IMG/VR virus record: IMGVR_UViG_3300044655_003531
Span: 64,001 to 128,000 of that record
Source of the DNA: a virus
Lineage: Duplodnaviria > Heunggongvirae > Uroviricota > Caudoviricetes
Reading direction: 5' to 3' (one strand)
Length of the DNA: 64,000 nt
This document shows, piece by piece, positions 4,213-55,200 of this stretch. The notes below the pieces were generated by a model that did no database searches, was not told the DNA's origin, and was given only the letters and a program-made list of their open reading frames with translations. Both the position numbers and the translations under genes were made by a program. Position 1 is the stretch's first letter, and each line of letters opens with the position of its first letter.

Positions 4213-5283
4213 TTAATTAATTGAATCTAGATCTAAAAGAACCAATTCGATCTGATCTTGGCCGGCATCTTTCAATTTCTTGATGATCTCTTTCATGTCT
4301 TTTTTGTACTGGGTGGCAAGACAGCCACTGCTAATGTTATCGACGGTATCTATATCAGCTCCTTGATGAATGTTGATTCCAAATTCACCTTTTTCTTCAT
4401 TGCCCGGTGAAAAAGTTTTAAATGTTGCCTGACTTTCAGAATCGACTGGCGTGTATCTATGAACCGTGACTGGTTCTGCCTGGATTAATGCATCCTCTTT
4501 CCCTTTGTGCTTACCCAATTTATAGGTATAAACACCCGGTTGAATGATGGCTAGCCCCTTGGGGTTAATGCCGGAAGCATTGCCCCTACTAGCCATTAAA
4601 TTCCGATAACTTTTTACCATAAAGGCTGGCCCAGGTGTGGTGGTGGCTGGATAAAATTGGACTGTTTTATTGGAGTCGGGACCTAGTAAGAAAAGTGCAT
4701 CGGTGAAACGATTGGGCATTTTTTTCTTCACCACCAGGTTGTTTCTCAGAGCAACAAGAGTGTATTTATCGGACGGGTACTTGATTCCTTCTTTTTTCAA
4801 TAGTTGGCTGAGATCACTCCAATCCATTTCTTTGGCCTCACTAAATTCGTAAGATCCTCCGTCTGGTAACTTACCGAAATCTATATCTCCACTTTTTCCC
4901 ATTCCCATTCTATCGAGCATATCTTGCAATTCTTTTTCCTTTGAGATATTGCCGGAAGGTGCATTTCTTGATCCAGTTCCTTCATCAGATAAATATTTGC
5001 TGTCTAGGAGACCTTTCTCGGACATCTGCTTTCGATAATCTTCATCCGTTTTTTCTAAAAATCTCTTGCCCATACTGGTAGACCAAAACATATTCTGTAA
5101 ATCTTTACCTGACTTGATAATTGGTTCTTTTAGACCACCGCTTTCTCCCCCTGTTTTGGGAATCAGTGGGGCAACTTCCCCAATGGCATCTTTTAAAATA
5201 TCCTGAATTTTTTCATTCTCTGTTATTCTGTCCGTTGACAGACCGAGAAAATCTTGAAAATTCAGAACTTTAGATGATTTCAT
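4213..5283 (-). CDS. Capsid-tagged protein with C-terminal L,D-transpeptidase/peptidase-like domain
   Basis: N-term VLNFQDF; C-terminal GINIHQG...NISSGCL (His...S-x-G-C as in the YkuD-like catalytic motif); GATATATA at 5300-5307. Confidence 0.5.
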   Translation of the reverse strand: MKSSKVLNFQDFLGLSTDRITENEKIQDILKDAIGEVAPLIPKTGGESGGLKEPIIKSGKDLQNMFWSTSMGKRFLEKTDEDYRKQMSEKGLLDSKYLSDEGTGSRNAPSGNISKEKELQDMLDRMGMGKSGDIDFGKLPDGGSYEFSEAKEMDWSDLSQLLKKEGIKYPSDKYTLVALRNNLVVKKKMPNRFTDALFLLGPDSNKTVQFYPATTTPGPAFMVKSYRNLMASRGNASGINPKGLAIIQPGVYTYKLGKHKGKEDALIQAEPVTVHRYTPVDSESQATFKTFSPGNEEKGEFGINIHQGADIDTVDNISSGCLATQYKKDMKEIIKKLKDAGQDQIELVLLDLDSIN

Positions 5284-5673: not shown

Positions 5674-6717
5674 TTAAAATATTTTTTGATATGTAGCCAG
5701 AAATTCCCGCTGAGTTTCATCCAGCTCCTTGGGAATTAGCAGTTTAATTCTCACCAGAAGATCTCCTCTAAAATCAGTGTTAAATTCAGGAACACCTTTC
5801 CCCGCCAGTCTCAATATTTTACCAGGATCCGTGCCCGGGGGAATAGAAATTTTATATTCACGATCAGGATTTTCCAGACTCGGGATTTTGACTTCAGTCC
5901 CAAGGCAAGCCTGAACAAAGTTGATCTCGCAGTCGCAGATTAAATTAATGCCATCTCTTTTGTAAAATGGATGGTCCATATCTTCTACAACGACGATCAG
6001 ATCCCCAGGATCGCAAGGTACTTTATCAAAATCACCTTTGCCATCCAGTTTAAAAGAAATCCCAGAGACGGATCCAGCGGGAATTTTTATTTCAACCTGA
6101 TCTGTTTTTCTGATGGTGCCAGATCCTGTACAATAGATACAAAGCTCTTCCGCTATCTCACCGATCCCCGAACAGGTATAGCAGGTTTCATCGATCGACA
6201 TTTGACCAAATCCAGTATTGACGACCTTTTTAATGAAACCCAAACTCATGCAAGCAGGGCAGATTCTAATTTTACCGTCTTTAGCTCCAGTTCCTTGACA
6301 GGGATTGCAGGGCAATCTTCTAAAGATGTTAACGATCTTCTTAGAACCCTTGATGCTCTCCTCTAGAGTCACCTGGAGTTTTGCGGTGATATTTTTGCCC
6401 CTTCTTATACCTCCATTATAGGTAGTATTATTATTAAAATTGTTAAAAAGATCTCCAAATCCCCATTGGAATGGTCCTCTTCCTCCCTGGAAAGGATGAT
6501 TTCCAAATGGGGACGCAGGCCGATCATATTGAGACTTTTTTTGGGGATTGCTTAGAACCTCATAGGCTTCAGAAACTTCTTTGAATTTTTCGGCGGCAGC
6601 AGGATCCTGATTGTTTTTATCTGGATGGTATTGAAGAGCTAGCTTTCGGTAATTCTTTTTGATTTCCTCCGGAGTAGATTCTTTGGTCACCCCAAGAATT
6701 TGATAATAATTCTTCAT
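5674..6717 (-). CDS. dnaJ: Class A J-domain co-chaperone DnaJ
   Basis: J domain with HPD, G/F-rich linker, four CxxC zinc-finger repeats ([32 protein letters not shown]), C-terminal GDL motifs. Confidence 0.95.
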
Positions 6718-6722
6718 ACAGT

Positions 6723-7067
6723 TTAAAGACCCTGTAAAAAATCCCTTAATTTTTTGGCCTGTGTTTTATCTATGAGAGGCATCCCCTTCCATTTCTGAAT
6801 GACCTGCGTTTTTAATTTTTGAATCTCGGCGCAAATTTCATATTTTTCTTCCTCCTCCCAATATTTCAGAGTTCTGCTGACAAAGTCTTCGATTTTATTC
6901 TCGGACTCGAAAATTGATAAGAATTCATTGTGTTGCTCTCTCAGAGCCTGAAGAAAAATATCGTGGACTGCCCGATCGATATTTTTCTTCAGCACGGCGT
7001 GTTGTGGATGATCTTCAAAGGAAGATCCCCAACCGGACAAATCGAAGTTTCTAGTAAAACTGCTCAC
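6723..7067 (-). CDS. Hypothetical protein
   Basis: 114-aa ORF in operon, stop/start overlap with the upstream gene. Confidence 0.7.
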
Positions 7068-7324
7068 TGGGCCAGGGTATTTTGAAGGGTTTTGTTAACT
7101 TGAAAAAAGAGGTGATCTACTCCTAGATCTCGGGCTTCGAATCCAGTTGCAGCCAAAACTTCGGCCAGCTTCTCTTCCCCGAAATTCTCAGCTAGGACCT
7201 GTCTTCTGACTTCGGCCTGAATTTCTAAATCTGGAGTGTACTTGACACGGGGAACTTCAAGTTGGAGAATTTCTTGCTCAAATTCCTGGAATTTTTGGAG
7301 GTCTATTGGTTCTATTTTTTTCAT
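7064..7324 (-). CDS. Hypothetical protein
   Basis: 86-aa ORF preceded by GAAATTTT-N-TATAAAAT (7331-7361). Confidence 0.65.
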   Translation of the reverse strand: MKKIEPIDLQKFQEFEQEILQLEVPRVKYTPDLEIQAEVRRQVLAENFGEEKLAEVLAATGFEARDLGVDHLFFQVNKTLQNTLAQ

Positions 7325-7359
7325 AAGTGCATTTTATATGACAGGTTGACTAAAAAATT

Positions 7360-8286
7360 TCATGGGAGAATGAAAGGAAAATCTCTGAGGTAGGCTAAGA
7401 GAGCAAGTTCTTTCATTTTGACCTCGAATTCTATATCTATCTCTAATCCGTAATGAGCCACACTTTCATAGATCCAATCTGAGTGGGCAACCTCTCTTGC
7501 CTGGGCATCTTCGTACTTCTTTTTGGAAGAAGAGAAGTGAACTACGGGCACTGTTCCAGCCGGCCAGGTAGAGAAGCAGAGCTTAAGGGCTTCTTCTTCG
7601 GAGAGAGCAGAGGGGTGACATTGATTATGAAGAAAGTCGAAGGTAATGGGAATCCCTACTCTCTGATGAACCAGCCTAAAAAGATCCTCGGCGTGAAAGC
7701 CAGACTTCTTGTCATCCACCTCCACTACCAATCTTTTTCTGACATTAGGAGGAGTGAGCTCTACCTGTCGGCAGAATCTCTCTGCTGCTTCTTCTTTCGT
7801 AGGCTGGGAAGTGTTGACGTGGATGTTAATGGGGTAGAAATATGACTGATCTAAACCCATCAAATCCATAATTTCTGCGTGTTGCCTAAGATCTTTTTGG
7901 GCAGCCCGAACCACTGAGTCTTGTTTGGATGCCAGAACTGCGAAGTGGGAAGGGTGGAAAGTTAGTCTTTGATCCCCCATTTTGGCCTCTTCTCCCGCCA
8001 TTTGCAAAAAAGATTTGATCTCGGCAAACCCAGGTAGATCTGAAAACTCGTATTCACTACACCAGGGAAAAATATCAGAGGACATTCGATACATTCTTAC
8101 CCCCTGCTGATTGTTCCATTTAATGATTTGAATTAGATCTCTGCAATTGGCCAAAGCCAGTTCAGACACATAGTCCAGTCCTTTGGCCAGAAATGTTTTT
8201 TTCACCATTGACCTGTTGGTGGTAATCCGGGGTTGGCCCTGAGTTTCACCCAGAGTTAGATTGATGCAGCAGTAGCCGTGTCTCAA
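7360..8286 (-). CDS. uvsE: UV damage endonuclease UvsE/UvdE
   Basis: GYCCIN, MYRMSSDIFPW, RLTFHPSHF, INIHV, RLVVEVDD, FDFLHNQC, VHFSS, HSDWI, EVKMKE. Confidence 0.93.
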   Translation of the reverse strand: MRHGYCCINLTLGETQGQPRITTNRSMVKKTFLAKGLDYVSELALANCRDLIQIIKWNNQQGVRMYRMSSDIFPWCSEYEFSDLPGFAEIKSFLQMAGEEAKMGDQRLTFHPSHFAVLASKQDSVVRAAQKDLRQHAEIMDLMGLDQSYFYPINIHVNTSQPTKEEAAERFCRQVELTPPNVRKRLVVEVDDKKSGFHAEDLFRLVHQRVGIPITFDFLHNQCHPSALSEEEALKLCFSTWPAGTVPVVHFSSSKKKYEDAQAREVAHSDWIYESVAHYGLEIDIEFEVKMKELALLAYLRDFPFILP

Positions 8287-10155: not shown

Positions 10156-10196
10156 GAGGTGGTGCTATTCAGGGAGGTATAACAGATATATAAGGC

Positions 10197-11180
10197 GTGA
10201 AACACCTCCAATCCTTTTCCCTGTTCGAAGCTCGGAAGACTTCAGATCTGACCCAAAAGCAAAAGACTTTCCTGACCAAATACACGCAAGGGACCTGGTC
10301 GGTCAACCGACAGACCGGTCTGGTCGATGTGGAAGGAGATTTTGACTGTAGTTACAGCGGACTGAGGTCTCTATCGGGCATCTCGTTCGGACATGTCAGT
10401 GGGAATTTCTCCTGTGCCGGCAACGATCTGACCTCCCTGGCCGGGGCACCCCAGACGGTGGGTGGGTATTTCTCCTGCGACAACAACCAGCTGACCTCCC
10501 TGGTCGGGGCACCCCAGACGGTGTGTGGGAGTTTCTTCTGTCAAGGCAACCATCTGACCTCCCTGGCAGGGGCACCTCAGACGGTGGGTGGGGTTTTCGA
10601 CTGTTCCGGCAACCAGCTGACGACCCTGGCCGGGGCACCTCAGAAGGTAAATAGGAGTTTCGGCTGTTCCGGCAATCGACTGATCTCTCTGGCCGGGGCA
10701 CCTCAGACGGTGGGTGGGAATTTCTACTGCGACAACAACCAGCTGACCTCCCTGGTCGGGGCACCTCAGACGGTGGGTCGGGATTTCTGGTGTTCCCACA
10801 ACCGGCTGACGACCCTGGTCGGGGCACCTCAGACGGTGGGTGGGTATTTCTTCTGCGACTCTTTCAAACTCCGGAGTGGGGAATGGAATCCCCAGGGCTG
10901 GTTGGCCATTCTGGCCACTGGAGATAGAAAAGCCCGGAGGCTGATTGTGACCCTGCCCATGTTCGATGCCGGCTTCTGGCTGCAGAAACTGAAGGGAGAC
11001 TTGAAGAAAGACGGTCAGGTGCTTCTGCAGCTGGCAGACCTCTGGGATAAGTCAGGCTGGGAGGAGCAGAGACAGGAGATCGAACAGAGACTCAGTCCTG
11101 AGCAGCTTCGGGTCATCAAGGCCCTAAAGACCAAATTGGGCTACGTCAATCCCTGGAAAGACTTTGACGGGATTGTCTAG
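10197..11180 (+). CDS. Variable LRR protein copy A (7 GAPQ repeats)
   Basis: GTG start 4 nt after GATATATA (10185-10192); MKHLQSFSLFE tag; 21-aa repeat V-x-G-x-F-x-C-x-x-N-Q-L-T-S/T-L-x-G-A-P-Q-T. Confidence 0.9.
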   Translation: MKHLQSFSLFEARKTSDLTQKQKTFLTKYTQGTWSVNRQTGLVDVEGDFDCSYSGLRSLSGISFGHVSGNFSCAGNDLTSLAGAPQTVGGYFSCDNNQLTSLVGAPQTVCGSFFCQGNHLTSLAGAPQTVGGVFDCSGNQLTTLAGAPQKVNRSFGCSGNRLISLAGAPQTVGGNFYCDNNQLTSLVGAPQTVGRDFWCSHNRLTTLVGAPQTVGGYFFCDSFKLRSGEWNPQGWLAILATGDRKARRLIVTLPMFDAGFWLQKLKGDLKKDGQVLLQLADLWDKSGWEEQRQEIEQRLSPEQLRVIKALKTKLGYVNPWKDFDGIV

Positions 11181-11193
11181 AGATATATAAGGC

Positions 11194-11976
11194 GTGAAAC
11201 ACCTCCAATCCTTTTCCCTGTTCGAAGCCCGGAAGACTTCAGGCCTGACCCAAAAGCAAAAGACTTTCCTGACCAAATACACGCAAGGGACCTGGTCGGT
11301 CAACCAGCAGACCGGTCTGGTCGATGTGAAAGGAGATTTTGACTGTAGTTACAAAAGACTGAAGTCTCTGCGGGGAATCTCGTTCGGACATGTCAGTGGG
11401 GATTTCTGGTGTTTCAGAAACCAGCTGACGACCCTGGCCGGGGCACCCCAGACGGTGGGTGGGAGTTTCTTCTGTGGCGGCAACCAGCTGAAGACCCTGG
11501 CCGGGGCACCCCAGACGGTGGGTGGGGATTTCTACTGTCAAGGCAACCAGCTGACTTCCCTGGTCGGGGCACCCCAGACGGTAAATGGGGATTTCTACTG
11601 TTTCAGAAACCAGCTGACGACCCTGGCCGGGGCACCCCAGACGGTGAGGGAGGGTTTCTACTGCGACTCTTTCGAAGTCCGAAGTGGGAAATGGAATCCC
11701 CAGGGCTGGACCGAGATTCTGGCCAAAAAAAATAGCAAAGCCCGGAGCCTGATTGTGATCCTGTTCGATGCCGGCTTCTGGCTGCAGAAACTGAAGGGAG
11801 ATCTGAAGAAAGACGGCCAGGTGCTCCTGCAGCTGGCAGACCTCTGGGATGAACCAGGCTGGGAGGAGCAGAGACAGAAGATCGAACAGAGACTCAGTCC
11901 TGAGCAGCTTCGGGTCATCAAGGCCCTAAAGACCAAATTGGGCTACGTCGATCCCTGGAAGGACGGGATTGTCTAG
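11194..11976 (+). CDS. Variable LRR protein copy B (4 GAPQ repeats)
   Basis: Same caps and repeat; GATATATA at 11182-11189. Confidence 0.9.
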   Translation: MKHLQSFSLFEARKTSGLTQKQKTFLTKYTQGTWSVNQQTGLVDVKGDFDCSYKRLKSLRGISFGHVSGDFWCFRNQLTTLAGAPQTVGGSFFCGGNQLKTLAGAPQTVGGDFYCQGNQLTSLVGAPQTVNGDFYCFRNQLTTLAGAPQTVREGFYCDSFEVRSGKWNPQGWTEILAKKNSKARSLIVILFDAGFWLQKLKGDLKKDGQVLLQLADLWDEPGWEEQRQKIEQRLSPEQLRVIKALKTKLGYVDPWKDGIV

Positions 11977-11990
11977 AGATATATAAGGGC

Positions 11991-13094
11991 GTGAAACACC
12001 TCCAATCCTTTTCCCTGTTCGAAGCCCGGAAGACTTCAGATCTGACCCAAAAGCAAAAGACTTTCCTGACCAAATACACGCAAGGGACCTGGTCGGTCAA
12101 CCCAGAGACAGGGCTAGTGGATGTAAAGGGAAGTTTTGCTTGTGGGGGTAAAAGATTAAAGAGCTTACAGGGCATCTCGTTCGGACATGTCAGTGGGAAT
12201 TTCTACTGTTCCGTCAACCAGCTGACCTCCCTGGCAGGGGCACCCCAGAAGGTGAGTGGGGATTTCTCCTGTTTCAGAAACCAGCTGACCTCTCTGGTCG
12301 GGGCACCTCAGACGGTGGATGGGCATTTTTACTGTGGCGGCAACCGGCTGACGACCCTGGTCGGGGCACCCCAGACGGTGGATGGGGATTTAGACTGTTC
12401 CTACAACCAGCTGACGACCCTGGCCGGGGCACCTCAGACGATGGATGGGCATTTCTTCTGTTCCTACAACCAGCTGACGACCCTGGTCGGGGCACCTCAG
12501 ACGGTGGGTGGGTATTTCTCCTGTTCCAGAAACCAGCTGACCTCCCTGTCAGGGGCACCCCAGAAGGTGGGTGGGAATTTCTCCTGTTCCGGCAACCAGC
12601 TGACCTCCCTGGCAGGGGCACCCCAGACGGTGGATGGGTATTTCTCCTGTTCCTACAACCAGCTGACGACCCTGGCCGGGGCACCTCAGACGGTGGGTGG
12701 GAATTTCTACTGCGACAATAACCGGCTGACCTCCCTGGTCGGGGCACCACAGACGGTGGGTGGGATTCTCCGGTGCGACTCTTTCACACTCCAAAGTGGG
12801 GCATGGAATCCCCTGGGCTGGACCAAGATTCTGGCCACTGGAGATAGCGAAGCCCGGAGCCTGATTGTGACCCTGCCCATGTTCGATGCCGGCTTCTGGC
12901 TGCAGAAACTGAAGGGAGACCTGAAGAAAGACGGCCAGGTGCTCCTGCAGCTGGCAGACCTCTGGGATAAGTCAGGCTGGGAGGAGCAGAGACAGGAGAT
13001 CGAACAGAGACTCAGTCCTGAGCAGCTTCGGGTCATTAAGGCCCTGAAGACCAAATTGGGCTACGTCGATCCCTGGAAGGACGGGATTGTCTAG
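11991..13094 (+). CDS. Variable LRR protein copy C (9 GAPQ repeats)
   Basis: Same caps and repeat; GATATATA at 11978-11985. Confidence 0.9.
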   Translation: MKHLQSFSLFEARKTSDLTQKQKTFLTKYTQGTWSVNPETGLVDVKGSFACGGKRLKSLQGISFGHVSGNFYCSVNQLTSLAGAPQKVSGDFSCFRNQLTSLVGAPQTVDGHFYCGGNRLTTLVGAPQTVDGDLDCSYNQLTTLAGAPQTMDGHFFCSYNQLTTLVGAPQTVGGYFSCSRNQLTSLSGAPQKVGGNFSCSGNQLTSLAGAPQTVDGYFSCSYNQLTTLAGAPQTVGGNFYCDNNRLTSLVGAPQTVGGILRCDSFTLQSGAWNPLGWTKILATGDSEARSLIVTLPMFDAGFWLQKLKGDLKKDGQVLLQLADLWDKSGWEEQRQEIEQRLSPEQLRVIKALKTKLGYVDPWKDGIV

Positions 13095-13125
13095 AGATAT
13101 AACATAGGTAAAGTATATATAGATA

Positions 13126-14007
13126 ATGAAAGAAAAAATAAGAAGGATTCAAAACTTCAGAGATTTTAGCAACTTGAATAGTTCCTTTAATTTAGATTTA
13201 GTTCTGGAAAAAATGGGTCGAAGAAGCCCAGTTGAATTGGCAAATTTACTGGAAAAATCCATCAAAGGTCTAGGAACGGACGAAGAACTGTTGCTGAAAA
13301 CTTTATTAGAAATTCCTGATTTGAAAACTCTGGGGGAAATTGATGCCATTTTTGCTAAATTTCCAGCCGTTTATTCATATAGAAGTGTTGGATCCCTTAT
13401 TAATTCCGAGTTAGGTTTTTTTGATCAGAAAATAATCGATGAAATAAAAAAACACACGGATCAATTGAAAGTCACAAATGACTTCTTACAAAAACAAGAA
13501 GAATCTCGTTTGAAGGACGAAAAAGTTAGAAGAACCGCGGAAGAAAGCATTAAATTGCACGAGGGTATTAAATATCAAATTTACCGGGACTCTAGAAAAA
13601 ATCTATCAATTGGAATTGGAATGAATCTAGAAAGATCGGATGCAGATACCAGGTTAAAGGAAATTGGGGCCAATCCAAAATTAATCAGGTCGGGAAAAGA
13701 GAAATTGAATGACAGTCAAATTCAGATTCTGTTTAAAAAAGACGTGGATAAAGCTATCGAAGATGCCAAATCTCTGGTTCCTGATTTGGGTCAACAGCCC
13801 TTACCGGTACAATGTGTTTTGATAGAAATGGCATTCAACCTCGGAAAGTCGGGCCTGTCCGAATTCAAAAAATTCTTATCTCACATCCAAAACATGAATT
13901 ACAAATTGGCTTCCCAAGAGATGCTCAATTCAACCTGGGCCAAGCAAGTGGGGAACAGAGCAAAAGAGCTGGCCAAAAGAATTGAAACTTACGAAGTAAA
14001 AAAATAA
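13126..14007 (+). CDS. Annexin-repeat + phage lysozyme (GH24-like) fusion with capsid-targeting-like N-terminus
   Basis: LEKSIKGLGTDEELLLKTLLEI matches the annexin K-G-x-G-T-D-E motif; C-terminal IKLHEGIKYQIYRDSRKNLSIGIGMNL...EMAFNLG...STWAKQVGNRA is T4-type lysozyme-like. Confidence 0.8.
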   Translation: MKEKIRRIQNFRDFSNLNSSFNLDLVLEKMGRRSPVELANLLEKSIKGLGTDEELLLKTLLEIPDLKTLGEIDAIFAKFPAVYSYRSVGSLINSELGFFDQKIIDEIKKHTDQLKVTNDFLQKQEESRLKDEKVRRTAEESIKLHEGIKYQIYRDSRKNLSIGIGMNLERSDADTRLKEIGANPKLIRSGKEKLNDSQIQILFKKDVDKAIEDAKSLVPDLGQQPLPVQCVLIEMAFNLGKSGLSEFKKFLSHIQNMNYKLASQEMLNSTWAKQVGNRAKELAKRIETYEVKK

Positions 14008-14015
14008 AAAAAAAA

Positions 14016-14579
14016 ATGAAAATACTGAACTTCGGAGAATTTAGGGATCAGATCAGTGAAAATCTGCAATATCACCTCCAAAATGATCTGACTCTAGCCA
14101 CTAGCGTCTTTAGAATTGGCTCCGAAGCCTGGTACGGGGTAATAGATGAGACTAGACGCCTTTGGGAATCAAATTCGATTGAATTAGACGACGACGACAC
14201 TTTTTTGATTAGCACCGAACTGGGCCGAAGGGGAATCTTTGAAGGGAAAGAGGTGTGGCTGGATTTACCTCTCCCTGAAGAGGATCTGCACGAGGCAGAA
14301 TATAAGGGCAGGAAGGTTTCTCTGAACAAACCTTTCAGAACCCCGGGTGCTCCTAGAAAATTTGGGGTTTACACTAAAAACGAGTCTGGTAACGTCGTTC
14401 TAGTTAGATTCGGCCAGCCAGGTATGAGAATAAGAAATGACGATCCTCAGAGATCAAAATCTTTTAGAGCAAGACACAATTGTGATAACCCAGGTCCCAA
14501 ATGGAAAGCCAGATACTGGTCCTGTAACGTGTCAAGATACAGAAAACTACTGGGCATTAAATCTTCAAGTCCATGGTAG
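14016..14579 (+). CDS. Conserved hypothetical head-associated protein
   Basis: N-term MKILNFGEF..ISE tag; basic C-terminal domain KFGVY..VRFG..RSKSFRARHNC..ARYWSC common in large phages. Confidence 0.7.
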   Translation: MKILNFGEFRDQISENLQYHLQNDLTLATSVFRIGSEAWYGVIDETRRLWESNSIELDDDDTFLISTELGRRGIFEGKEVWLDLPLPEEDLHEAEYKGRKVSLNKPFRTPGAPRKFGVYTKNESGNVVLVRFGQPGMRIRNDDPQRSKSFRARHNCDNPGPKWKARYWSCNVSRYRKLLGIKSSSPW

Positions 14580-17635: not shown

Positions 17636-18268
17636 TTATTCTGAATCAGGGGTCCGGTTTAGTTCTAAGGCCTTCACGATCTTCTTGTAAACGCTCTCGC
17701 TACCTTTGGCGGCATTATATTTTTTCAGTTTTCTGTTTTTTGTGTAGAGATCAATCAGGGGTGCAGTTTTTTCTTCATAGTCTCTGAATCTTTTAGCCAC
17801 CACCTCTGGATCTTTGTCGTCCTTCCGGTCTTCTCTTTCCGCCCTGGCAGTAATTCTGCCTTTGGCCGTTTCTTCGTCTATATCCAGATAGATGGTGTGG
17901 CTCAGGCCCAAGCCCATTTTTCCGAGCAAAGAATCTAACAGAGAGGCTTGTTTAACGGTCCGGGGGAATCCGTCAATAATGATCCCATCATCAGGATCAA
18001 TTTTCTTCAGTTCCCTCCGGATCATCTTTACAACTGTCTGATCGTCGATGAAATCACCCCGTTCAACTTTTTTCTTGATCTCCGGGTTTTTTGATTTCCT
18101 GAGCAATTCTCCGGTTGAAATGTGGTGGAAGCCTTGCCTATCTGCCAGTTTTTCGGAAAAAGTTCCTTTACCTGATCCCGGAGGTCCCATCACAACTAGA
18201 ATTTTTCCTTGAGAATCCGGCAATTCTCTTTCTATTAAAAAATCTGAGAAATTCTTAACTAAATCCAT
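17636..18268 (-). CDS. adk: Adenylate kinase family (short LID) with capsid-targeting-like N-terminal extension
   Basis: GPPGSGKGT P-loop, HISTGELLR, IIDGFPRT, R..DD; preceded by MDLVKNFSDFLIERE; GATATATA at 18273-18280. Confidence 0.9.
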   Translation of the reverse strand: MDLVKNFSDFLIERELPDSQGKILVVMGPPGSGKGTFSEKLADRQGFHHISTGELLRKSKNPEIKKKVERGDFIDDQTVVKMIRRELKKIDPDDGIIIDGFPRTVKQASLLDSLLGKMGLGLSHTIYLDIDEETAKGRITARAEREDRKDDKDPEVVAKRFRDYEEKTAPLIDLYTKNRKLKKYNAAKGSESVYKKIVKALELNRTPDSE

Positions 18269-29139: not shown

Positions 29140-30483
29140 TTATATTCCAAGTTTCTCTCTAGTTTTAGGTCCCACTATTCCATCATCCACCAAACCTTTT
29201 TTCCTTTGAAATTCCTTAACAGCCTGTTCAGTTTTAGGACCAAAATTAGTTCTTTGGGTTCCTAAATTTGTCATGCCCAATGCATCCTGGAGTTTACCGA
29301 CCTCCTCAGACTTCATTCCTCTTTTTAAGACTTCTTTTCCTCCGCTGCCTGCTGACTGGACGGATCCAGATCCTCCCGAGTCCTTTCCTTCTGAGTCTTC
29401 TTTTTTAACTTCACTAAATCCCAAGGCACCCAATAGAACTTGTTTTTGATCGGAGCTTAAACTGGAAGCCCATTTTTTCAAATCTTCCTTTGTTTTGATT
29501 GACGAAGGAAATTTTATATCTTTTACTTCTTCTTCTTCTTTATATTTTTGATCTTTTTCTCCTTTATTATCTTCTTCTGAAGTTAAAAGTTTTCTGAATT
29601 CTTCTATTTGTTTAACGATTGTTTCGGCCCAAACTTCTTTTGATGATTTGCCAAGGTCAACATTTTCCAATTCTTGCTGACCCCCTTTAGATTTTTGAGA
29701 GGACTTGAAATTGATTTTTGCTCCTTTTGCATTTAGATCCGTGACCAATTTTCCCATCATTTCTTGGGAAACTTCCACTGCCTTGTCTTTGAAAGTCGTA
29801 GAAAAAGCCAAGCCAAAAAGTTCCAATAAGTTCGATAATTGTTCGGACACAACTTCATTGTATCCTGAGAATTCCTCATCCGATAAAGCCTTACCCACCA
29901 TTTCTATCAATTGGTCATAGGTAGTTTCTTCTCTTAAGGAGGTCATACTTTTAACAATCCCCCTTTCTACTGCATTCATTTCTTTCCAGATTTGGGGCCA
30001 AACCTGGAGCCAAAATTCTTTAGGCTCGATTTTAGTTTCTTCAATAATAGGCTTACCATCAAATTTGACAGACGGAATAAAGTACTTAGACACTATAGGA
30101 AAAATCTTATTGAGTGACCTTTCGATTAGAGCCTTAATAGCCACTTTATATTTGGAATCGATGTTGTCTAGGGTTTCAGTTTTGACTTCTTCGATCCAGG
30201 TATTCATAACATTGTTTGCTATCCCGTATGGTTCAACACTTTGACCGTTAATGTCGATTTTTTGCTCCATAGGTAATTCTTTGCCCTTAATTTGATAAAA
30301 GGGCGTACTCAAACGTTTTTGGCTTTCTTCTTGATCACCCAGGACTGGAGAATCCCCTCCTCTTTTTTTTCCGATTTTATCGAGTTTTTTTTCTAATCTT
30401 TCTTCCCTTCTTTGCAGTCTCCTCTCCTTTCGACTCATTTCTTCTTCTAAAATATAATCAGAGAATTTAATAATAGAGTTCAT
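29140..30483 (-). CDS. Capsid-tagged protein with C-terminal peptidoglycan-binding domain
   Basis: MNSIIKFSDYILEEE; LKRGMKSEEVGKLQ..FGPKTEQAVKEFQRKKGL..DGIVGPKT (PG_binding_1 pattern); GATATATA at 30499-30506. Confidence 0.8.
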   Translation of the reverse strand: MNSIIKFSDYILEEEMSRKERRLQRREERLEKKLDKIGKKRGGDSPVLGDQEESQKRLSTPFYQIKGKELPMEQKIDINGQSVEPYGIANNVMNTWIEEVKTETLDNIDSKYKVAIKALIERSLNKIFPIVSKYFIPSVKFDGKPIIEETKIEPKEFWLQVWPQIWKEMNAVERGIVKSMTSLREETTYDQLIEMVGKALSDEEFSGYNEVVSEQLSNLLELFGLAFSTTFKDKAVEVSQEMMGKLVTDLNAKGAKINFKSSQKSKGGQQELENVDLGKSSKEVWAETIVKQIEEFRKLLTSEEDNKGEKDQKYKEEEEVKDIKFPSSIKTKEDLKKWASSLSSDQKQVLLGALGFSEVKKEDSEGKDSGGSGSVQSAGSGGKEVLKRGMKSEEVGKLQDALGMTNLGTQRTNFGPKTEQAVKEFQRKKGLVDDGIVGPKTREKLGI

Positions 30484-30799: not shown

Positions 30800-31333
30800 C
30801 TAGCGATTCAAGACGTAAACTCCTTTTCTAGATCCGGGTTGCAAATGCCATTCATCACCTAGGATCGAAATTAACATAGATCTAGCGTACTCCTCGTAGT
30901 TATTCAGAACTAGATTTTGATTCATCTCATCCACTATTCTGATTGTTTTTGGGTTTTTCTCCAAGTAATTCAAAAGACATTTGCCAATCTGCTTGTAGAG
31001 CCTCGCCAATTCTCCTCCCTTAAGTTTAAATTTATTGGAGTTAGCTTCGGGTAAATTCTTGGTGTTCTCAATTGCAATGTCTTCGATCACCTCGGGCTCG
31101 ATCTGGTTGAGATTAATGACGGCATAAGAATTTTTTGGACCCTCCATATTTTCAAATCTGGAGTATTTGCCAATCAAAAAAACATAACCTTGCTGGTCTC
31201 CTTTTTCTTTGTCTATCTGGAAAAAATAGTAACATAGATCCCCGTCTTTCTTAAAGAGAAAGGGCAAGGTTCCAAACCCATCGGCTTCATTTAGCTGGGT
31301 AATGAATTGAGAATAAGGAAGAATAACTTTCAC
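30800..31333 (-). CDS. Capsid-tagged hypothetical protein
   Basis: MKVILPYSQFITQLNE; GATATATA at 31351-31358. Confidence 0.7.
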   Translation of the reverse strand: MKVILPYSQFITQLNEADGFGTLPFLFKKDGDLCYYFFQIDKEKGDQQGYVFLIGKYSRFENMEGPKNSYAVINLNQIEPEVIEDIAIENTKNLPEANSNKFKLKGGELARLYKQIGKCLLNYLEKNPKTIRIVDEMNQNLVLNNYEEYARSMLISILGDEWHLQPGSRKGVYVLNR

Positions 31334-33330: not shown

Positions 33331-33762
33331 TTATTTATGGGGAGGAAAACTTGTTGGAAAATTTGGAAAAAAAGATAAAGGACCGTATTCTTGAAGTTCA
33401 AAATCAACATATCCTCTGGACTCCAAAAAAAGAAGACTATTGAGAATTTTGCCAATAATTAATTTAGATTTATCATGTAATGGTGAGTTCCAGGTCATTA
33501 AGAGCAAGGGAACATAAACGGATAAAGGAGGAGGAGAAAAACCAAAATTGATCAAATCGTAGACTGATTTTTCCATCGTGTAGATAATTTCATCTCCAAT
33601 CTGAACTTCGTAATCTCCGGTTGAATTGGCCATGACAGAACCATTTAAACCCAGCACTGTCCTAAACAAAATGACTTCGGGGTGTTTAAAGATGGATTCT
33701 ATTCCATCTCCTTCCAGCAAGAAATCCAAAGTGGTGTAGAAAAGATTAGGGAAAACGTTCAT
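33331..33762 (-). CDS. Hypothetical protein
   Basis: 143-aa ORF overlapping the upstream stop; no motif recognised. Confidence 0.55.
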   Translation of the reverse strand: MNVFPNLFYTTLDFLLEGDGIESIFKHPEVILFRTVLGLNGSVMANSTGDYEVQIGDEIIYTMEKSVYDLINFGFSPPPLSVYVPLLLMTWNSPLHDKSKLIIGKILNSLLFLESRGYVDFELQEYGPLSFFPNFPTSFPPHK

Positions 33763-34684
33763 TACTAACCAGTTTTTTTATTTCCCAAGGAATGTCGTGA
33801 TTGGTTCTCTCTAAGTATCTGACAAAATCTTCCACTATAGATTGTAGTTTATCGGCATGGATAAAAGTCGGTTTTTTTATTAAAGACCAGACATCCTCGA
33901 AGGTCTTAACATCACTCGGTCTAACACCAGAACCAAAAAGTAGATCTAGCATCTTTTGAGGATCCCTGGTGACTAGAAAGGTGCTATCTTCTAAAATTTT
34001 AGGTCGGGAGAGTCTTTTTGTTGCTCCCCGATAGGTCTTACGATTCTTATAAACGCCATCTCCTAGTTTGAGAACATACCCAGTATAATCCATGATTTGC
34101 CCTTCTTTATCAACGGAATCTACATCCTTCAAGGCCGAAAGAATGGCCTGGAAAAGCCAATTCCTGTGGGCAGATTTATACTTGGATTCTTTTTTTCTCT
34201 GGTCCGGGGAGTAAAAAATAAATTTAGCCCAATCCATATCCGCAATTGGAATCAGATCAAGTTGAACCGTGCCGTTCTTGATGTTCCCCTCAATGGGCCA
34301 TTCAACGCTGACTATGTTGATCCCTTTAAACATTTTGATCTCCGGTTTGTAACCCAAAATGTCGGGGAGTTGGTCCTTCAGTTTCTCGGTCATTACATCC
34401 AACACCTTGGATTCAGGAACACCCCATTTTTGGGCCAGGAAGGGTTTAGAAACTCCCAAATCCACGTCCCCGGAAGTGTCATCTGGACTTTCTTTTTTTC
34501 CAATGCTGCCAATGAGCAAAAAGTCCCTGTTTAATTTTCCATCGCCCAGCAAGGGAAAAAGGGCTTCCCCTAAGTGGGTCAAAGTTTTGGCCACTTCATC
34601 CTCTCGGATCTTTCTAGAACTGCCAATAGCAGCCCCTCCTTCATTTAATTCCATATATTGTGTGTAGGTATAAATCATGCTCAA
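33746..34684 (-). CDS. Pol-beta superfamily nucleotidyltransferase with capsid-targeting-like N-terminus
   Basis: IGSIGKK..TSGDVDL (GS..DxD) and third acidic VQLDL; N-term MIYTYTQYMELNE. Confidence 0.75.
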   Translation of the reverse strand: MSMIYTYTQYMELNEGGAAIGSSRKIREDEVAKTLTHLGEALFPLLGDGKLNRDFLLIGSIGKKESPDDTSGDVDLGVSKPFLAQKWGVPESKVLDVMTEKLKDQLPDILGYKPEIKMFKGINIVSVEWPIEGNIKNGTVQLDLIPIADMDWAKFIFYSPDQRKKESKYKSAHRNWLFQAILSALKDVDSVDKEGQIMDYTGYVLKLGDGVYKNRKTYRGATKRLSRPKILEDSTFLVTRDPQKMLDLLFGSGVRPSDVKTFEDVWSLIKKPTFIHADKLQSIVEDFVRYLERTNHDIPWEIKKLVSNERFP

Positions 34685-49205: not shown

Positions 49206-52200
49206 TTAAATTTTCTGGATTCTGAAGGAGAAAGTCAAGGAATAATTTTGACCGACCGTTAGAGGATATTCGAAAGAGTAAATCAAATCGGTGATTTTAG
49301 TTAATCTGTAGTTATTTTGTTGATAGTAACCATATCTGATCCGATCTGGATTAATAAGATCTCCTCTTACCAATAATTCAGTTGTTGTTAACGCCTCTCC
49401 TGTCTTCTTGACAAACAGATCAAAAGTAATCCCTTCGTAGATAGGAACTATATTCTGGTCAATGTAGGTGTTGATATCGTCGTAGATGCTGTTGGGATTC
49501 CCCAATCCAAACTCGCTCACCATGTTGTCGACGAAAACCTGGCTAACCCCGGAATTTAACAGATACCTTCTTAAGATCCTATCCAATCTGATAGAACCGA
49601 TGACGGTGTTGGAAATTTCGTTCCTTTGCCAGAAGATTTCCACTTGGGGGAAGATGTCTTGATCGAAAACGGGTAAATCAACATTACTGAGATAATTTCC
49701 TAATTGTCCTACCCCAGTGTTAGAAGTGGAGGGGTTTAAATTTTGAATGGCAGGAACCGCGGCAACCGCCTGAGTGTTAATCGCATCGACATTGGTGTTG
49801 CCTGATGTTCTCACCAGTTCTAGAGTGATGAAAGTGTAGATGGTAACAGTGTAGGGGGTCTGCATCATCTTTGAACCCAGAAAACTTTTGTTCTCCTTCA
49901 TCGATCTAGTTCCGGCAACTGGATTCTGGGTTGTAGCCGAGGTCCAAAGATTGTAGTAGCCAGGATCCCAGCTGGAAAGGAAGACTGAGAAATTCTTGTA
50001 GGAAATTGGTGATTGACCCACTAAAGGAAACACCGGTCCTTGTGGCAAATTCTGAGAAGCCTGAAGAATATTTTGATCCAGAGAGACTTTAGAAAAAGCC
50101 AGATTTTCTATGAGACCAAATCCTTCTTGCTCGGGGGCAAAGGTACAGTTTCTGAAAGTAATGTCTGCCCCTGGGTTGCCGGAGATTGAATCCGTTTTAT
50201 CACCCTTGAATCTGAGCACCTTCTTAAACAAAGGTTCGTATGCGCCTCCATACCTTAAAATATCACTGGCCAGCTCGGAACCACCGTTTTCAATCTGATA
50301 ACTGGTAACAACACTAGTGCCTAGAGTTTGAGGCCCTTCGTAGCTCTTGACTGGATATAAGCCAGTTGGTTTATAGAGAGCAGTTGGCTCAGTAAAAGAA
50401 ACTTGAAAAGAATTCTGAGAAACCAGGGTACTTTCAGCAATCGGATCCCAATCGTAAGTAGTATAACTAATATAGGGGCTTTCGTTATTAACACGCAAAT
50501 AAATTTGGGATAGGGAAATTCTTTTTAGAATAAAGTCGAAATAATCTTCTCCCCCGTCTACTTGAAAAACTGGATAATTAGCGTAGGCTGATCTTGGTCC
50601 TACTGGGATTGTAACTGGCGAGGAGAACGCAAAGGGAATTTGGAATTCATAGGCTCCTGGCTCGATAGCTTGAAAATCAACTAAATTTTGGGATCTTCCA
50701 ACTGGCCAGGGGTAAGTGTAAGACTGACTGGGGACGTAGAAACTACCAGGTCCGGTATCGGAGACGGACCCGGTAGATCCTATTGGGTAAAACAAATTGA
50801 TCTCTTCTCTTAAATCGGTGTCAAAATCTGGATTTTCAATGGTGAAGATTTTTCCAGAATTAGAAAATAGAGTAACTGAACTGTCTGAAGTAGTGGAGAG
50901 ATTCAAGGCCGCAGACAACTTGATATCAGCAATATCGTAGAGAGGTGATCCAGTAGGACCCGTAGCTCCTGTTGTTCCAACGTCCGTGGCCTCTTTCTTG
51001 TCACTCATGCAATACATCAGCAGATAATCCAGGTAGGGTGTTCCTCCAGTTCCTCCAGTCGACCCCAAAGGTAAAGCTCTGTAATCTTTAATGACGACGT
51101 ACACTACCAAGAGGACACATTTTTGTTGCACGTTTTCAATAAACTCATACCTAACTGGACTTTGGATTTCAGAATCATCCTCCGGCACAACTTTGAGGAT
51201 GGCAGAGAAATTGTAATTTTCATACCCTCTGTAGTTGATAATGTATTTTTCAAGCTCTGATTTGGGGTTCGTAACACTGCTTCTTTTCTTCAGTACTATC
51301 TTTACTCCCCTAAAGACCGTTTCATAAAAACCGGTGGCATAATTGAAATTGAGGTTGCTAAAGTATTCGTACCCCTGATATTTCAGGCTGTAGTAGGGAG
51401 CTGGATAATCTGCGGTTGAGACAGTAAAGAATGAATTAAAGTACAGGGCGTAATTAGGATTGCCACTACGCAATTTCTGAAAATCAACCTCGCCCGGCAG
51501 ATAACTTTTCTGTTTTGAAATATCATCAATTGGGAACTGAGGAGGAACCCCCTGAAGAATCAACCACTCGTGGGTCAGATATCGAGGATCTGGGCTTTCT
51601 TTCTGAAAACTAGGGGAAAAATTGGTGGGGCTGAATGCAGGAGAAGAATTCAGTCTGTAAACATTGCCCCTGGCGTCGGTGCCACCTAAGAATCCCCATT
51701 TGTTCACGAAAGGCACTATTCTAGAAAAATTGGCCCGGGTCTGGGTGAAGTTTTCCCAGAGATACTGGTATTCTGTTTCAAGCTTACCATATTCAAATAA
51801 CTCTGCCTTTTCAAGAGGATTTGGGATCGGCATTTCGTTAGAGATGGATTGAATTCCGTAAAAACCCTCAAACGAGTTCAGATTTTGCTCGGGGACAATT
51901 GTTGTAGGGTAGGGGGTCTGAGGGTCTACCCAACCAACCTGGCTGAAAACTGCTGGATACACGACAGAAAGAGTTCCAGTTTCAGAGAATAATATATCCT
52001 GGAAATAGTTGACCGTAGTGCCAATAAAGGCAGAGCCTGGGCCTAAAATCCTCTCCGTGGGTGAACCTTTATCAACCAGTATTTCACCACTCCTTACGAT
52101 GTATTTTACACCCTCTACGATTTGACCAGGTTGATCAGGAACAAGTTGGAAATATCGATGGAATTCAGGGGTTGGTGTTTCTCCGTATTTAGAGGATAGA

Positions 52201-55200
52201 AAATCGTAGTCAAAATCTTTCAGATCGAAGAAACTGAAAGCACCTGAGTAGAGAGTAGCTACATCCCAAACATTGAAATTGCCATCACTACCCAGGCTGA
52301 TAATAGCTTTAGTATCTTCCAAACTTGCGACCAAAAATTCATTGTAGCCCCTGAATTCAGTCACGGTGCCCGAAGTCAAGGAGGGATTATTATTGTAGAT
52401 TGGACGGTCGACGTATCTGGTAACCGAGGAAATTCTAGAAACGGAACCTACCACTCCCCTACCTCCTTCCACTTCGATCCATTTGCCAGGGGTAATTTTA
52501 TCTTTCTCGTTGATTGAAAAGGCAACTCTAGATTTGGAGAAATCAGTACCACCAACGAAATTCAGATTTCTATCTAAAGCTGAAACGTCATAGTTCTCAA
52601 TTTTAATCAGACCTGAAGTTGTAAAGGTGAAGTAATTTTGCCAAGTGTTATCCTCCGTAGGAGGAGGATTCGTGTTGCCGGAACTTGGGGCTGTAATGGC
52701 AGAAGAAGCTGTGTAGTAGACATTAAAATAGGAGACAATTTGACCTGCGGAATAGCCGGCCGTGCTGGACCAAATTCCGGCATAAGAAGACTCAAAAGAA
52801 TCATAGTCAGAAAAGACTGCAATCTTAAAATCTGTGTTGTAATTCGCTCCGCTGTTTCTGGCTCTAATGATAGCGTTATTGTCAGAATTAGCAGAATCCC
52901 AGATAGTGCTGCTGATGGAGAGAACACATTGAACAAACGAAGATGCGACTTGGGACGTTTGGCCCTGAGAGAAATTGAAATAGTGGGTGTTGCCGTTGTT
53001 ATAAGAACTTCCAGCCTGCCAATTGAGAACGCTGCCTCCCAATAAGGAAGATTGAATCAGGTCGTATTTTTCATTTAAAGGTCCTCTAGTTCCATTCGGC
53101 CAAATGATCTTGAAGGTAACTGGAGTACTGCTATTAAAAGTTGATAAAAACTGGATATTAATGTTGGCGTGACCGGAAGATTCAGGTAAAAAACCCGAAA
53201 AACCACCTATTCTTTCATTGGGGCCGGTAAAATCAAGTAGATTTAGTTGCCTATTGAACACAACTAAATTACCGGATTTCATTTCCATATTCGACTCAGT
53301 TCCGAAATTACCAGAAGGCAAAAGAGGTCCGAATTGACCACTTACCGGGGTGTTGTTGGACCAAGTTTGGGTGGTGGAATCGTAATTTTCATTTCTGAGG
53401 AGGGAATAAAATTTGTCGTTTTTATCGGTGATATAGAAAAGCTTCTGTGGCTCTAAAACATTTACATCATAGGAGCCAGGAATCCAAGAATTTGCCTCTT
53501 GATAGAAAAGTCTGACTCCGGTCGTGCTACTCAAATAATTAGGGTCAGTACTACTAGCATATCCGACATTATTGGTGGAAGGTTTAGGTAGATTGTTGTT
53601 GCCGGACAGGTTACGATATTGATAGAAGAAATCTCCATTCAATTTAAAACTTCCTAAATCATTTCTGGAAACATACAGACCAAAATATCTGTTGATGGAA
53701 TATAAATCAGAATCAGGATCATTAAAGAGAAATTCTAAATTCAATAAATTGGGAATTATGATCCCATTTCTCTCAAAACCTCCTGTCACATAATTCTCGA
53801 AATCTATCTGGGGGGTGGAGTTGTTGGAAATCAAGAAATCGTACATCAACTCCCCTTTTTTACTATAACTACCTGTTTTGATATCTACTCCTTGGTAGTA
53901 AGTAAAGGCATTAAGCTGATAGGAGAAATCCAAAGGAGCTGAAGAAAATCCAGGATCGTTAATGATAGATCTAATATATTTACCTATAACGGTGTCCTCT
54001 CGAAGATCAAAAGTTGCTATAGCAGCCGCGTTTGGAAGGATTTTACTGTTGAAGTATGAATTAACGTCATCAACTTCAGGCTGGAAAAGAGTCTCGTTCA
54101 TTAGCACAACTTTACCAGATCCTGATACAATTTCGTAGGTTGAGTAAACAGAATTTCCAACCATAAATTCTCCAGCCCTATACAAAATAGGCCGGGCAAA
54201 ATTATCAACCCCATAAGAGATGACAAAAGGATCAGGTGAATTGACGTCTTGAATAATTTTGTACTGGGTCCCGCTCAGAATTTCGGTTTGGTTTGTCGAA
54301 TACGGATAACTCAAAGGCCCCGGGATTTTAAAGATGACAAAGAAATCTGGAATCTCATCCCGCAACCACAATGGCTGGAAGTACCGGAAATTCTCGTTGT
54401 AATTTCTATCAACAAGTGTAGAGGCACCAGAGCCATAGAAGAAATCGTACTGAGAGCTAAAGCCTTCCACTGGCCGGTCCTCCCCATCAGTAAGTTTTGC
54501 AACTTCAAAAATAACATTTTCTGGCACGGTTCCGTTCATGAAGAATCTGTACAGATCTTTAGAATAGGCGTTTTGTCCCGAAACTCGGTATTTTTTGAAT
54601 CTTTGATCGCTAAGAACTGGATTTGCATCCATTGAATTCATCCAAACTGAACCATTAGAGTCCAGTGTTAATTTCACATTTCCTGTTAATTTTGGATTTG
54701 TTCTTAGAACTCCAAAGGAAGAATTGTAATCAAAAAGTTTGGGTAAGAAAGTGCAAAGTCTACCTGTATCGGTTGCTATAACACCCGCAATGGTGGTCAC
54801 ATTTCTGAGGCAGATATTGCAGATTTCAGAAAAAGCAGAAAGGGAAAAAGGTTGTGAAGTGCCATCGCATCTGGTAACAGTGATAGTAACGGGATACGAA
54901 TTTGTGTTTGCGATACACCATCTGATACAATCGTAAATAATAGGAGTAGGGGTAACACTCGGGGTAACACTCGGGGTCGGGGTGCTAGTAGGGGTGATAC
55001 TCGGGGTTGGTGTGTTGGTAGGGGTGATACTCGGGGTTGGTGTGTTGGTAGGGGTGGTACTAGGGGTCGGAGTATTAGTAGGAGTGATACTCGGGGTCGG
55101 GGTGTTAGTAGGAGTGATACTCGGGGTCGGGGTGTTAGTAGGAGTGATACTCGGAGTCGGGGTGTTAGTAGGGGTGACGCTCGGTGTTACACTAATAGAA

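Follow-up and report, generated by a model that had tools for sequence, protein, structure and literature searches.

Tandem leader-bearing leucine-rich repeat genes shaped by recombination and diversifying selection in a giant lake phage

The stretch analysed here, referred to as the window, comprises 64,000 nucleotides (positions 64,001 to 128,000) of the IMG/VR virus record IMGVR_UViG_3300044655_003531, and its element of interest is a run of three leucine-rich repeat (LRR) genes, A, B and C, on the plus strand. The record is 150 kb long and 61% complete by CheckV, with 39% of the genome missing from it. The same phage is also present as a 267-kb lake-metagenome contig and is an uncultured giant lake phage with a genome of about 267 kb. 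Gene A (10197-11180, 327 residues), gene B (11194-11976, 260 residues) and gene C (11991-13094, 367 residues) all start with GTG and are separated by spacers of 13-14 nt. In gene A a leader (10197-10229) is followed by an N-cap extending to 10403, seven 63-nt LRR units (10404-10844) and a C-cap with a helical domain (10845-11180). The corresponding leader, units and C-terminal region lie at 11194-11226, 11401-11652 (four units) and 11653-11976 in gene B, and at 11991-12023, 12198-12764 (nine units) and 12765-13094 in gene C. Tandem Repeats Finder gives a period of 63 nt with 7.3, 4.3 and 9.1 copies in A, B and C, and anchoring on the GAPQ motif yields exactly 7, 4 and 9 units of 21 residues, with a spacing of 21 residues in all 20 units. 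The three proteins are near-identical over the N-terminal ~69 and C-terminal ~105 residues. A, B and C are intact tandem paralogs. An earlier note made from the DNA letters alone had described three tandem genes with near-identical caps and 7, 4 and 9 copies of a 63-nt, 21-residue LRR, and the open reading frames, repeat finding and GAPQ count agree with it. On one side they adjoin the gene for a topoisomerase II large subunit, which is transcribed divergently and has only 30% identity to its T4-like counterparts, and on the other a lysozyme-domain gene.

Variation and selection were assessed over the 20 units of A-C and over 80 units drawn from 13 genes that are closely related. High entropy is confined to unit positions 1, 3, 5, 6 and 20 (x-F-x-C-x-x-N and V-x-G), within a fixed L..L.GAPQ.V framework, which is where the earlier note had placed the variation (V-[x]-G-[x]-F-[x]-C-[x]-[x]-N beside a constant LTxLxGAPQ). 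By pooled Nei-Gojobori estimates over the 80 units, the ratio of non-synonymous to synonymous substitution rates (dN/dS) is 5.2 at the five variable codons compared with 0.13 at twelve framework codons, with similar dS (0.18-0.24). The third base of the variable codons is fixed by position, being T at positions 1 and 20 and C at positions 3, 5 and 6 (NNT/NNC), while bases one and two are free, and such third-base changes as occur there are almost always non-synonymous (TGG, CAA, AGA, AAA). Together, this third-base pattern and the dN/dS contrast bear the mark of selection for altered amino acids on a common framework that is young. Each repeat has five codons under strong diversifying selection, and the framework and caps are conserved.

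A fixed third base with two variable bases before it also brings to mind a diversity-generating retroelement, in which hypermutation from AAY template codons would produce the NNT/NNC pattern. This mechanism was rejected and is very improbable. There is no match to a reverse transcriptase (PF00078) in the 150-kb record of the 267-kb genome, and no all-AAY template repeat was found. Variation extends beyond consensus adenines, with T, C and G sites reaching minor-allele frequencies of 0.39-0.49, and the non-synonymous third-base changes are common. The framework carries unlinked polymorphisms of its own, 80 different units in 13 genes misfit a single template, and the alleles were stable from 2020 to 2024.

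Pfam searches with the A-C proteins returned only a borderline match to LRR_4, and their PHROG hits belong to families without a known function. Among proteins of solved structure, Internalin-J (InlJ; PDB 3bz5, profile E 2.9e-21) is closest in sequence, with the phage F-x-C-x-x-N-x-L in register with the InlJ L-x-C-x-x-N-x-L at a 21-residue period. An AlphaFold2 model of the gene C protein, built from a 60-sequence alignment (pLDDT 93.8, pTM 0.88), leads from disordered residues 1-12 through a helix and N-cap into a regular solenoid and then a six-helix C-terminal domain. The modelled solenoid is curved, with two short strands per repeat by DSSP and strands on both faces, and its best PDB matches in Foldseek are the LRRs of YopM, IpaH and SspH, the InlJ LRR also being among the best. 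From the model, the A-C repeats can be assigned with confidence to an LRR solenoid of the Internalin-J or IRREKO type. The 21-residue IRREKO class has been described as almost exclusively bacterial, with strands predicted on both faces (PMC2946307).

The phage repeats share with InlJ and the IRREKO class the 21-residue period, the L-x-C-x-x-N-x-L core with its cysteine ladder and the two short strands per repeat, but their second half-repeat reads L-x-G-A-P-Q-x-V-x-G rather than L-D-L-x-x-N. InlJ is moreover a cell-wall-anchored surface protein, whereas the phage proteins are leader-tagged and taken as cytoplasmic. The structural match to YopM, IpaH and SspH1/2 is to short-repeat LRR target-recognition modules of proteins that are delivered into another cell, and IpaH and SspH also join a variable LRR to a constant C-terminal domain. 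The phage proteins differ in having no NEL ligase domain, their constant helical C-terminal domain having no recognised relative, and their proposed delivery would be by phage ejection rather than a secretion system. Modelled alone, the C-terminal domain is a helical bundle of ~100 residues (pLDDT 85.3). When C-termini of the family are aligned across phages, a conserved tail of acidic and hydrophobic residues (...DELGLF, ...DDLGF, ...RDFGI, ...KDGIV) is seen at the extreme end of many members and may serve as a second signal for addressing or docking.

In a canonical LRR core, the residues marked x on either side of the inward-facing F and C occupy the ligand-binding strand and its edges. The variable positions of the phage repeats flank the F-x-C strand and would form the predicted ligand face, a placement that derives from the DSSP pattern and the register with InlJ and canonical LRRs and not from computed accessibility. 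Structure prediction had been proposed in the earlier note as a check of this point, and it puts the variable residues at strand-flanking sites that make up the ligand face in LRRs of known structure.

The 80 units are all distinct, with two differences between the most similar ones, and for 63 of them the nearest neighbour lies in another gene. The adjacent framework sites at nt 30-31 are perfectly linked (r2 = 1; 48:0:0:30) and the adjacent pair at nt 38-39 has an r2 of 0.14. All other common framework pairs, which are 7-45 nt apart and include synonymous sites, show four gametes with r2 of at most 0.033. Recurrent mutation is hard to fit to four gametes at 7 nt or more with the 30-31 pair intact, and fine-scale recombination between repeats does fit. 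The repeats are fine-scale mosaics, in linkage equilibrium beyond 7 nt. The pairwise homoplasy index (PHI) supports recombination in the N-terminal regions of the 13 paralogs (p = 0.0005) and in the A-C units (p = 0.0005), and is not significant on C-terminal regions. Recombination tests on the aligned repeats had been suggested at the outset, and the decay of linkage and these two PHI results supply the mosaics that were looked for. Two related contigs are mosaic as well: gene 1 of L016 and the end of L009 each combine segments from different paralogs.

Positions 5 and 6 of the unit are strongly coupled (z = 7.9), with SY, SG, GG, DN, QG, FR, SV and HQ as preferred pairs, and are only weakly coupled to positions 1 and 3. 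This agrees with the impression of the earlier note that half-cassettes recur within and between genes, and every string that it quoted is found in place: TGTTTCAGAAAC (CFRN) at 11410 and 11599 in B and 12270 in C, TGTCAAGGCAAC (CQGN) at 10539 in A and 11536 in B, TGTGGCGGCAAC (CGGN) at 11473 in B and 12333 in C, and GGGAATTTCTACTGCGAC (GNFYCD) at 10716 in A and 12699 in C, with CSYN occurring three times in C. Mapping of mosaics inside the repeats by exact matches was also tried and was uninformative, the framework alone giving matches of 25-45 nt.

Base composition also sets the arrays apart. The GC content of A-C is 0.56-0.57, and GC at third codon positions (GC3) is 0.70 in A-C and in a second LRR array of the same phage, whereas neighbouring genes have 0.36-0.50 and the divergent paralog D has 0.37. 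A lesser GC3 excess occurs in the arrays of other phages (L014, L023, L017). GC-biased gene conversion or a horizontally spreading lineage of foreign cassettes is a possible cause. Mosaic repeats and homogenised caps indicate that homologous recombination between repeats and between paralogs is frequent, through unequal crossing-over and gene conversion, and that selection maintains the diversity of the binding face.

The timescale of this recombination is apparent from assemblies and relatives of the phage. The same A, B and C are found at 99.99-100% identity in contigs of several JGI and NCBI assemblies. In Logan contigs from four lake runs (2020, 2023 and 2024) the window-specific junction pieces are present at about flank depth with no alternative joints, although these contigs break inside the repeats and do not bridge the array, so that rare variants could be hidden. 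Among relatives, compared through metagenome contigs anchored on the topoisomerase gene, the locus holds 0 to 3 LRR genes. The relative L040, with a topoisomerase only 74% identical, has three genes of 7, 4 and 9 units in the same order, with best matches to A, B and C respectively. In this comparison the caps are 81-90% identical within each genome but 25-52% identical between positional orthologs, and caps that are alike within a genome and divergent between orthologs denote concerted evolution.

Over the same locus the strain L016 has flanks 99.5-100% identical to those of the window, and its intergenic region and the first 156 nt of its gene A are the same as there. Beyond that point gene A has different repeats (six units) and a different C-terminus, and the second gene has another C-terminal type. 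At the end of contig L009, from the same sample series, positions 7795-8012 (window 11991-12208) differ at 36 of 220 nt in the N-terminal region of the third gene, which is a patchwork of A-like and second-array-like segments and may represent either a genuine minor allele or a jump from one paralog to another during assembly. Within a lineage the arrays have persisted over years. The 7/4/9 layout is old, homogenisation and fine-scale reshuffling are continual, and occasionally an array is replaced outright between otherwise identical strains.

These data bear on the speed and mechanism proposed in the earlier note, which had envisaged rapidly retargetable binders resembling lamprey variable lymphocyte receptors (VLRs). 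Rapid retargeting in any programmed sense is contradicted by an array that is the same across assemblies and the 2020-2024 runs and by the layout shared with L040. At the resolution of these contigs the population is monomorphic, which the note had itself named as evidence against its proposal; the simple tree of repeats that it had named beside this is not found, the repeats being mosaics, and the locus does differ between near-identical strains through the replaced array of L016. VLR diversity arises by somatic copying of flanking cassettes into an incomplete germline gene. A programmed equivalent, with copy-choice assembly of cassettes into expressed genes in each infection or generation, would find an architectural resemblance in the phage arrays, with their constant N- and C-caps, variable number of LRR modules, short strings shared between units and diversity at concave-face positions. 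That likeness stands for the architecture and does not carry over to the mechanism. All genes in both arrays are complete, with leader, caps, start and stop, and no silent partial cassettes surround an incomplete gene. As every gene is complete and heritable, a VLR-like system is unsupported, and the absence of identical units among the 80, the constancy of sequence over several assemblies and four runs in four years and the retention of the layout in a distant relative make it extremely improbable. The diversity comes instead from ordinary homologous recombination and strong selection over evolutionary time, that is, from germline evolution.

Two side observations concern the same comparisons. 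Window positions 6400-8000, over a UvdE-like gene region, form a patch of 87-95% identity to L016 inside flanks of 99-100% identity, which appears to be a second recombination mosaic near the array. In L025 (9001-11416) and L040 (2525-6000), whose topoisomerases are ~74-75% identical, LRR and topoisomerase genes point the same way, and in the window (10197-14579) the two diverge, so the LRR block appears inverted relative to topoisomerase between lineages.

Strain-level replacement combined with diversifying selection is typical of receptor-binding proteins, and the closest solved relative, InlJ, is a Listeria surface adhesin. The LRR proteins might accordingly be adhesins or host-range determinants on the virion surface, decorating head or tail and binding variable host surface structures with the LRR face. 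We regard this as improbable, given that the proteins have no fibre, trimerisation or baseplate-attachment domain and a C-terminal domain without a match, that the genes lie far from tail-fibre-like genes, that the leader is common to enzymes and that at least 11 copies would be unusual for receptor-binding proteins.

The leader itself suggests a different location. It comprises ~11-12 residues (MKHLQSFSLFEA), has L-x-E at its end and is disordered in the model. The family N-terminus follows M-[KQR]-H-[LIV]-x-x-F-x-[LIV]-[FY]-E-[AS], and Glu11 is at least 90% conserved in 60 diverse members. A looser motif, [ILVM]xx[FY]xx[FYW], heads 19 of the 184 N-termini of the record against 5.8 expected and is concentrated in the window; [LI]xE follows in 8 of 13 such leaders compared with a background of 21%. 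Apart from the LRR genes, the combined pattern [ILV]xx[FY]xx[FYW]...[LI]xE is found in the window at 4213-5283(-), 13126-14007, 14016-14579, 17636-18268(-), 29140-30483(-), 30800-31333(-) and 33746-34684(-), and its carriers include two proteins with peptidoglycan-hydrolase domains. In L023, L025 and L040 the same leader stands on unrelated non-LRR bodies adjoining the LRR genes.

A comparable arrangement is known from phage T4, where a capsid targeting sequence (CTS) of 10-19 residues, with residues 4 and 7 responsible for targeting and residues 8 and 10 governing cleavage, stands at the front of varied internal proteins, each of them an inhibitor of one GmrSD restriction enzyme (PMC9026906, PMC3012670, PMC12373910). 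As in Ip1, Ip2, Ip3 and Alt of T4, a short N-terminal leader with aromatics three apart and then [LI]-x-E is carried by unrelated proteins; the loci are variable, with leader and upstream regulatory box kept and bodies swapped, and the proposed role is that of injected, target-specific inhibitors. The phage differs from T4 in that its bodies belong to one LRR family of at least 11 paralogs rather than being unrelated small basic proteins, in that its leader is 11-12 residues long with a shifted motif, in that its upstream box is GATATATA and not TATAAATA, and in that its packaging, cleavage and protease are putative. From the resemblance of the leader to the T4 CTS and its presence on unrelated neighbours we infer targeting to the prohead. 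The description of the leader as a head-cargo tag in the earlier note is supported to the extent that it is common to unrelated proteins, and packaging of the LRR proteins in the capsid we consider evenly balanced between right and wrong.

An alignment of the three upstream regions revealed a conserved AGATATATAAGG(G)CGTG ahead of A, B and C. The GATATATA box lies at 10185-10192 (+), 5 nt ahead of the start of A, at 11182-11189 before B and 11978-11985 before C, and occurs 15 times in the window (at 513, 5300, 10185, 11182, 11978, 18273, 21887, 23360, 25406, 27070, 30499, 31351, 35254, 39649 and 40609) against 1.24 expected, a 12-fold excess that marks it as a real motif. Its sites are located from a few bases to ~70 nt upstream of gene starts, most leader-bearing genes are preceded by it and in related phages (G)GATATATA or AATATATA occupies the corresponding position. 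The box is probably a promoter or regulatory element of this phage group's own. The T4 late promoter TATAAATA was tried as a candidate and occurs three times in the window against 2.1 expected, at chance level and never at the locus; scans for sigma-70 promoters and terminators were also at chance level. The late promoter that the earlier note gave to each gene is thus borne out as a shared, real box before each but does not follow the T4 late consensus, and its reading as a late promoter is unproven.

Our best explanation of the whole is that the phage maintains an LRR family, diversified by recombination and selection, whose members are packaged, injected and bind host proteins. In this model the 12-residue leader would direct the LRR proteins into the prohead and would be cut after L-F-E, the proteins would enter the host with the phage DNA, and each paralog would target a host protein of its own, for which a defence component is the most plausible candidate by analogy with T4 Ip1-3. 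The parts resting on direct observation (family, selection, recombination, and stability with turnover) we hold with high confidence, the complete explanation we judge somewhat better than even, and an anti-defence role for the proteins, drawn from the T4 analogy, is offered only tentatively.

Several points weigh against this explanation. Virion location, cleavage, injection and target are all inferred. The leader also heads a nucleotide-kinase-like enzyme, which would be an odd capsid cargo. The GATATATA box also precedes a gene for a protein resembling single-stranded DNA-binding protein (SSB), so the box need not be a late promoter, and at only 3-5 nt from the GTG it is a poor fit with the -10 element of a leadered mRNA. 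Neither a T4-type prohead protease (PF03420) nor gp23 (PF07068) has a match in the 150-kb record, although with a record 61% complete and control genomes that were silent too, these missing matches are not evidence of absence. The C-terminal domain has no convincing relative in the PDB, AFDB clusters, BFVD or a VIA-wide search (Z at most 5.4, to generic helical repeats), and in the Atlas feature search it scored below 0.8. Finally, PHI does not reach significance when all 80 units are pooled, incompatibility being saturated whatever the distance.

Some of the same points would suit LRR proteins that are made during infection and never packaged, acting inside the infected cell as binders that adapt or inhibit host proteins. 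The shared leader would then serve co-regulated translation, docking, or recognition by a Clp-type unfoldase of the phage. The kinase-like leader carrier, the box before the SSB-like gene and the lack of a head protease match in the 150-kb part of the genome are in keeping with such a function, as are the position of the LRR genes among replication genes and the presence of phage genes for a ClpA/B-like AAA+ protein and DnaJ. It accounts less well for a predicted disordered leader that fits the logic of the T4 CTS, with aromatics three apart, [LI]xE and a near-invariant Glu (PMC9026906), or for the occurrence of this leader on the two peptidoglycan-hydrolase-domain proteins, which are typical ejected virion proteins. 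A purely intracellular function is a competitor to packaging and injection, though in our estimate an unlikely one.

The family is far larger than the three genes at the locus. The phage has at least 11 LRR copies, namely A-C, paralog D and a second tandem array of at least seven, inside which the 267-kb contig begins. In a 40-kb contig from another sample the second array has at least seven genes of 280-409 residues, with 5-11 units each and 13-14-nt spacers. Paralog D (525-1340, +, ~271 residues) is divergent at 38-43% identity, has the leader PIQSFKIFEA and a GATATATA box at 513-520, and shows native codon usage. The family amounts to 3,360 or more near-length clusters, and to 24,009 representative clusters at E<=1e-3, and its nearest Atlas clusters are viral. 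Other lake phages also have tandem LRR arrays, such as the four LRR genes of L023, which are followed by a leader-bearing non-LRR gene, and in some relatives the same repeats are fused to other N-terminal domains, for example a PcfJ-like one. A near-DNA search with the locus gave no match in the phage collection, and no cultured phage there has a leader-bearing homolog. In the literature no paper was found that links LRR proteins with phage internal proteins or deals with IRREKO in phages. We place the arrays with two known kinds, T4-type leader-tagged cargo and multigene LRR effector families that evolve by recombination and diversifying selection.

In its boldest form the proposal is that giant freshwater phages keep a heritable, recombination-diversified repertoire of about a dozen capsid-loaded LRR 'receptors', which are injected and each neutralise a different host immune protein. 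We put this forward as a conjecture that will more probably prove wrong than right. If true, viruses would have their own counterpart to the LRR-based repertoires of immune receptors, and the family would constitute a natural library of compact binders to bacterial defence systems. Should the proteins be injected, each paralog would mark a host protein that the phage must disarm at entry, and the family, with thousands of members in lake metagenomes, would offer a route to unknown bacterial defence components and their natural inhibitors. The T4 internal-protein idea, which concerns a few small proteins unrelated to one another, would thereby come to include a scaffold that can be expanded and whose face can be tuned. 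The locus is also a clean microbial case of concerted evolution combined with diversifying selection, with homogenised caps, a diverse face, linkage decay within 7 nt and raised GC3; comparable dynamics are usually considered in connection with the immune and effector gene families that eukaryotes and pathogens possess. For binder engineering, too, so regular a 21-residue scaffold may be of interest.

Further genes of the phage were noted. A DnaJ homolog is encoded at 5674-6717(-), and an 821-residue ClpA/ClpB-like AAA+ unfoldase (AAA_2, AAA_lid_9, ClpB_D2-small) at G000:C1:55341-57806, equivalent to L026 9342-11807, some 6-9 kb before the window start. The region 49206-60614(-) encodes a 3,802-residue open reading frame and then one of 1,041 residues that matches only a PHROG family of unknown function. 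Directly downstream of gene C, the lysozyme-domain gene (13126-14007, +, 293 residues) has a related leader, IQNFRDF, and a C-terminal phage-lysozyme domain; its protein matches PF00959 at E 1.6e-6 and the PHROG annotation 'internal virion lysozyme motif', and no relatives were confirmed in viral contigs. It is followed by a 187-residue gene (14016-14579, +) with the related leader MKILNFGEF...ISE, which adjoins LRR genes in the relative L025 too.

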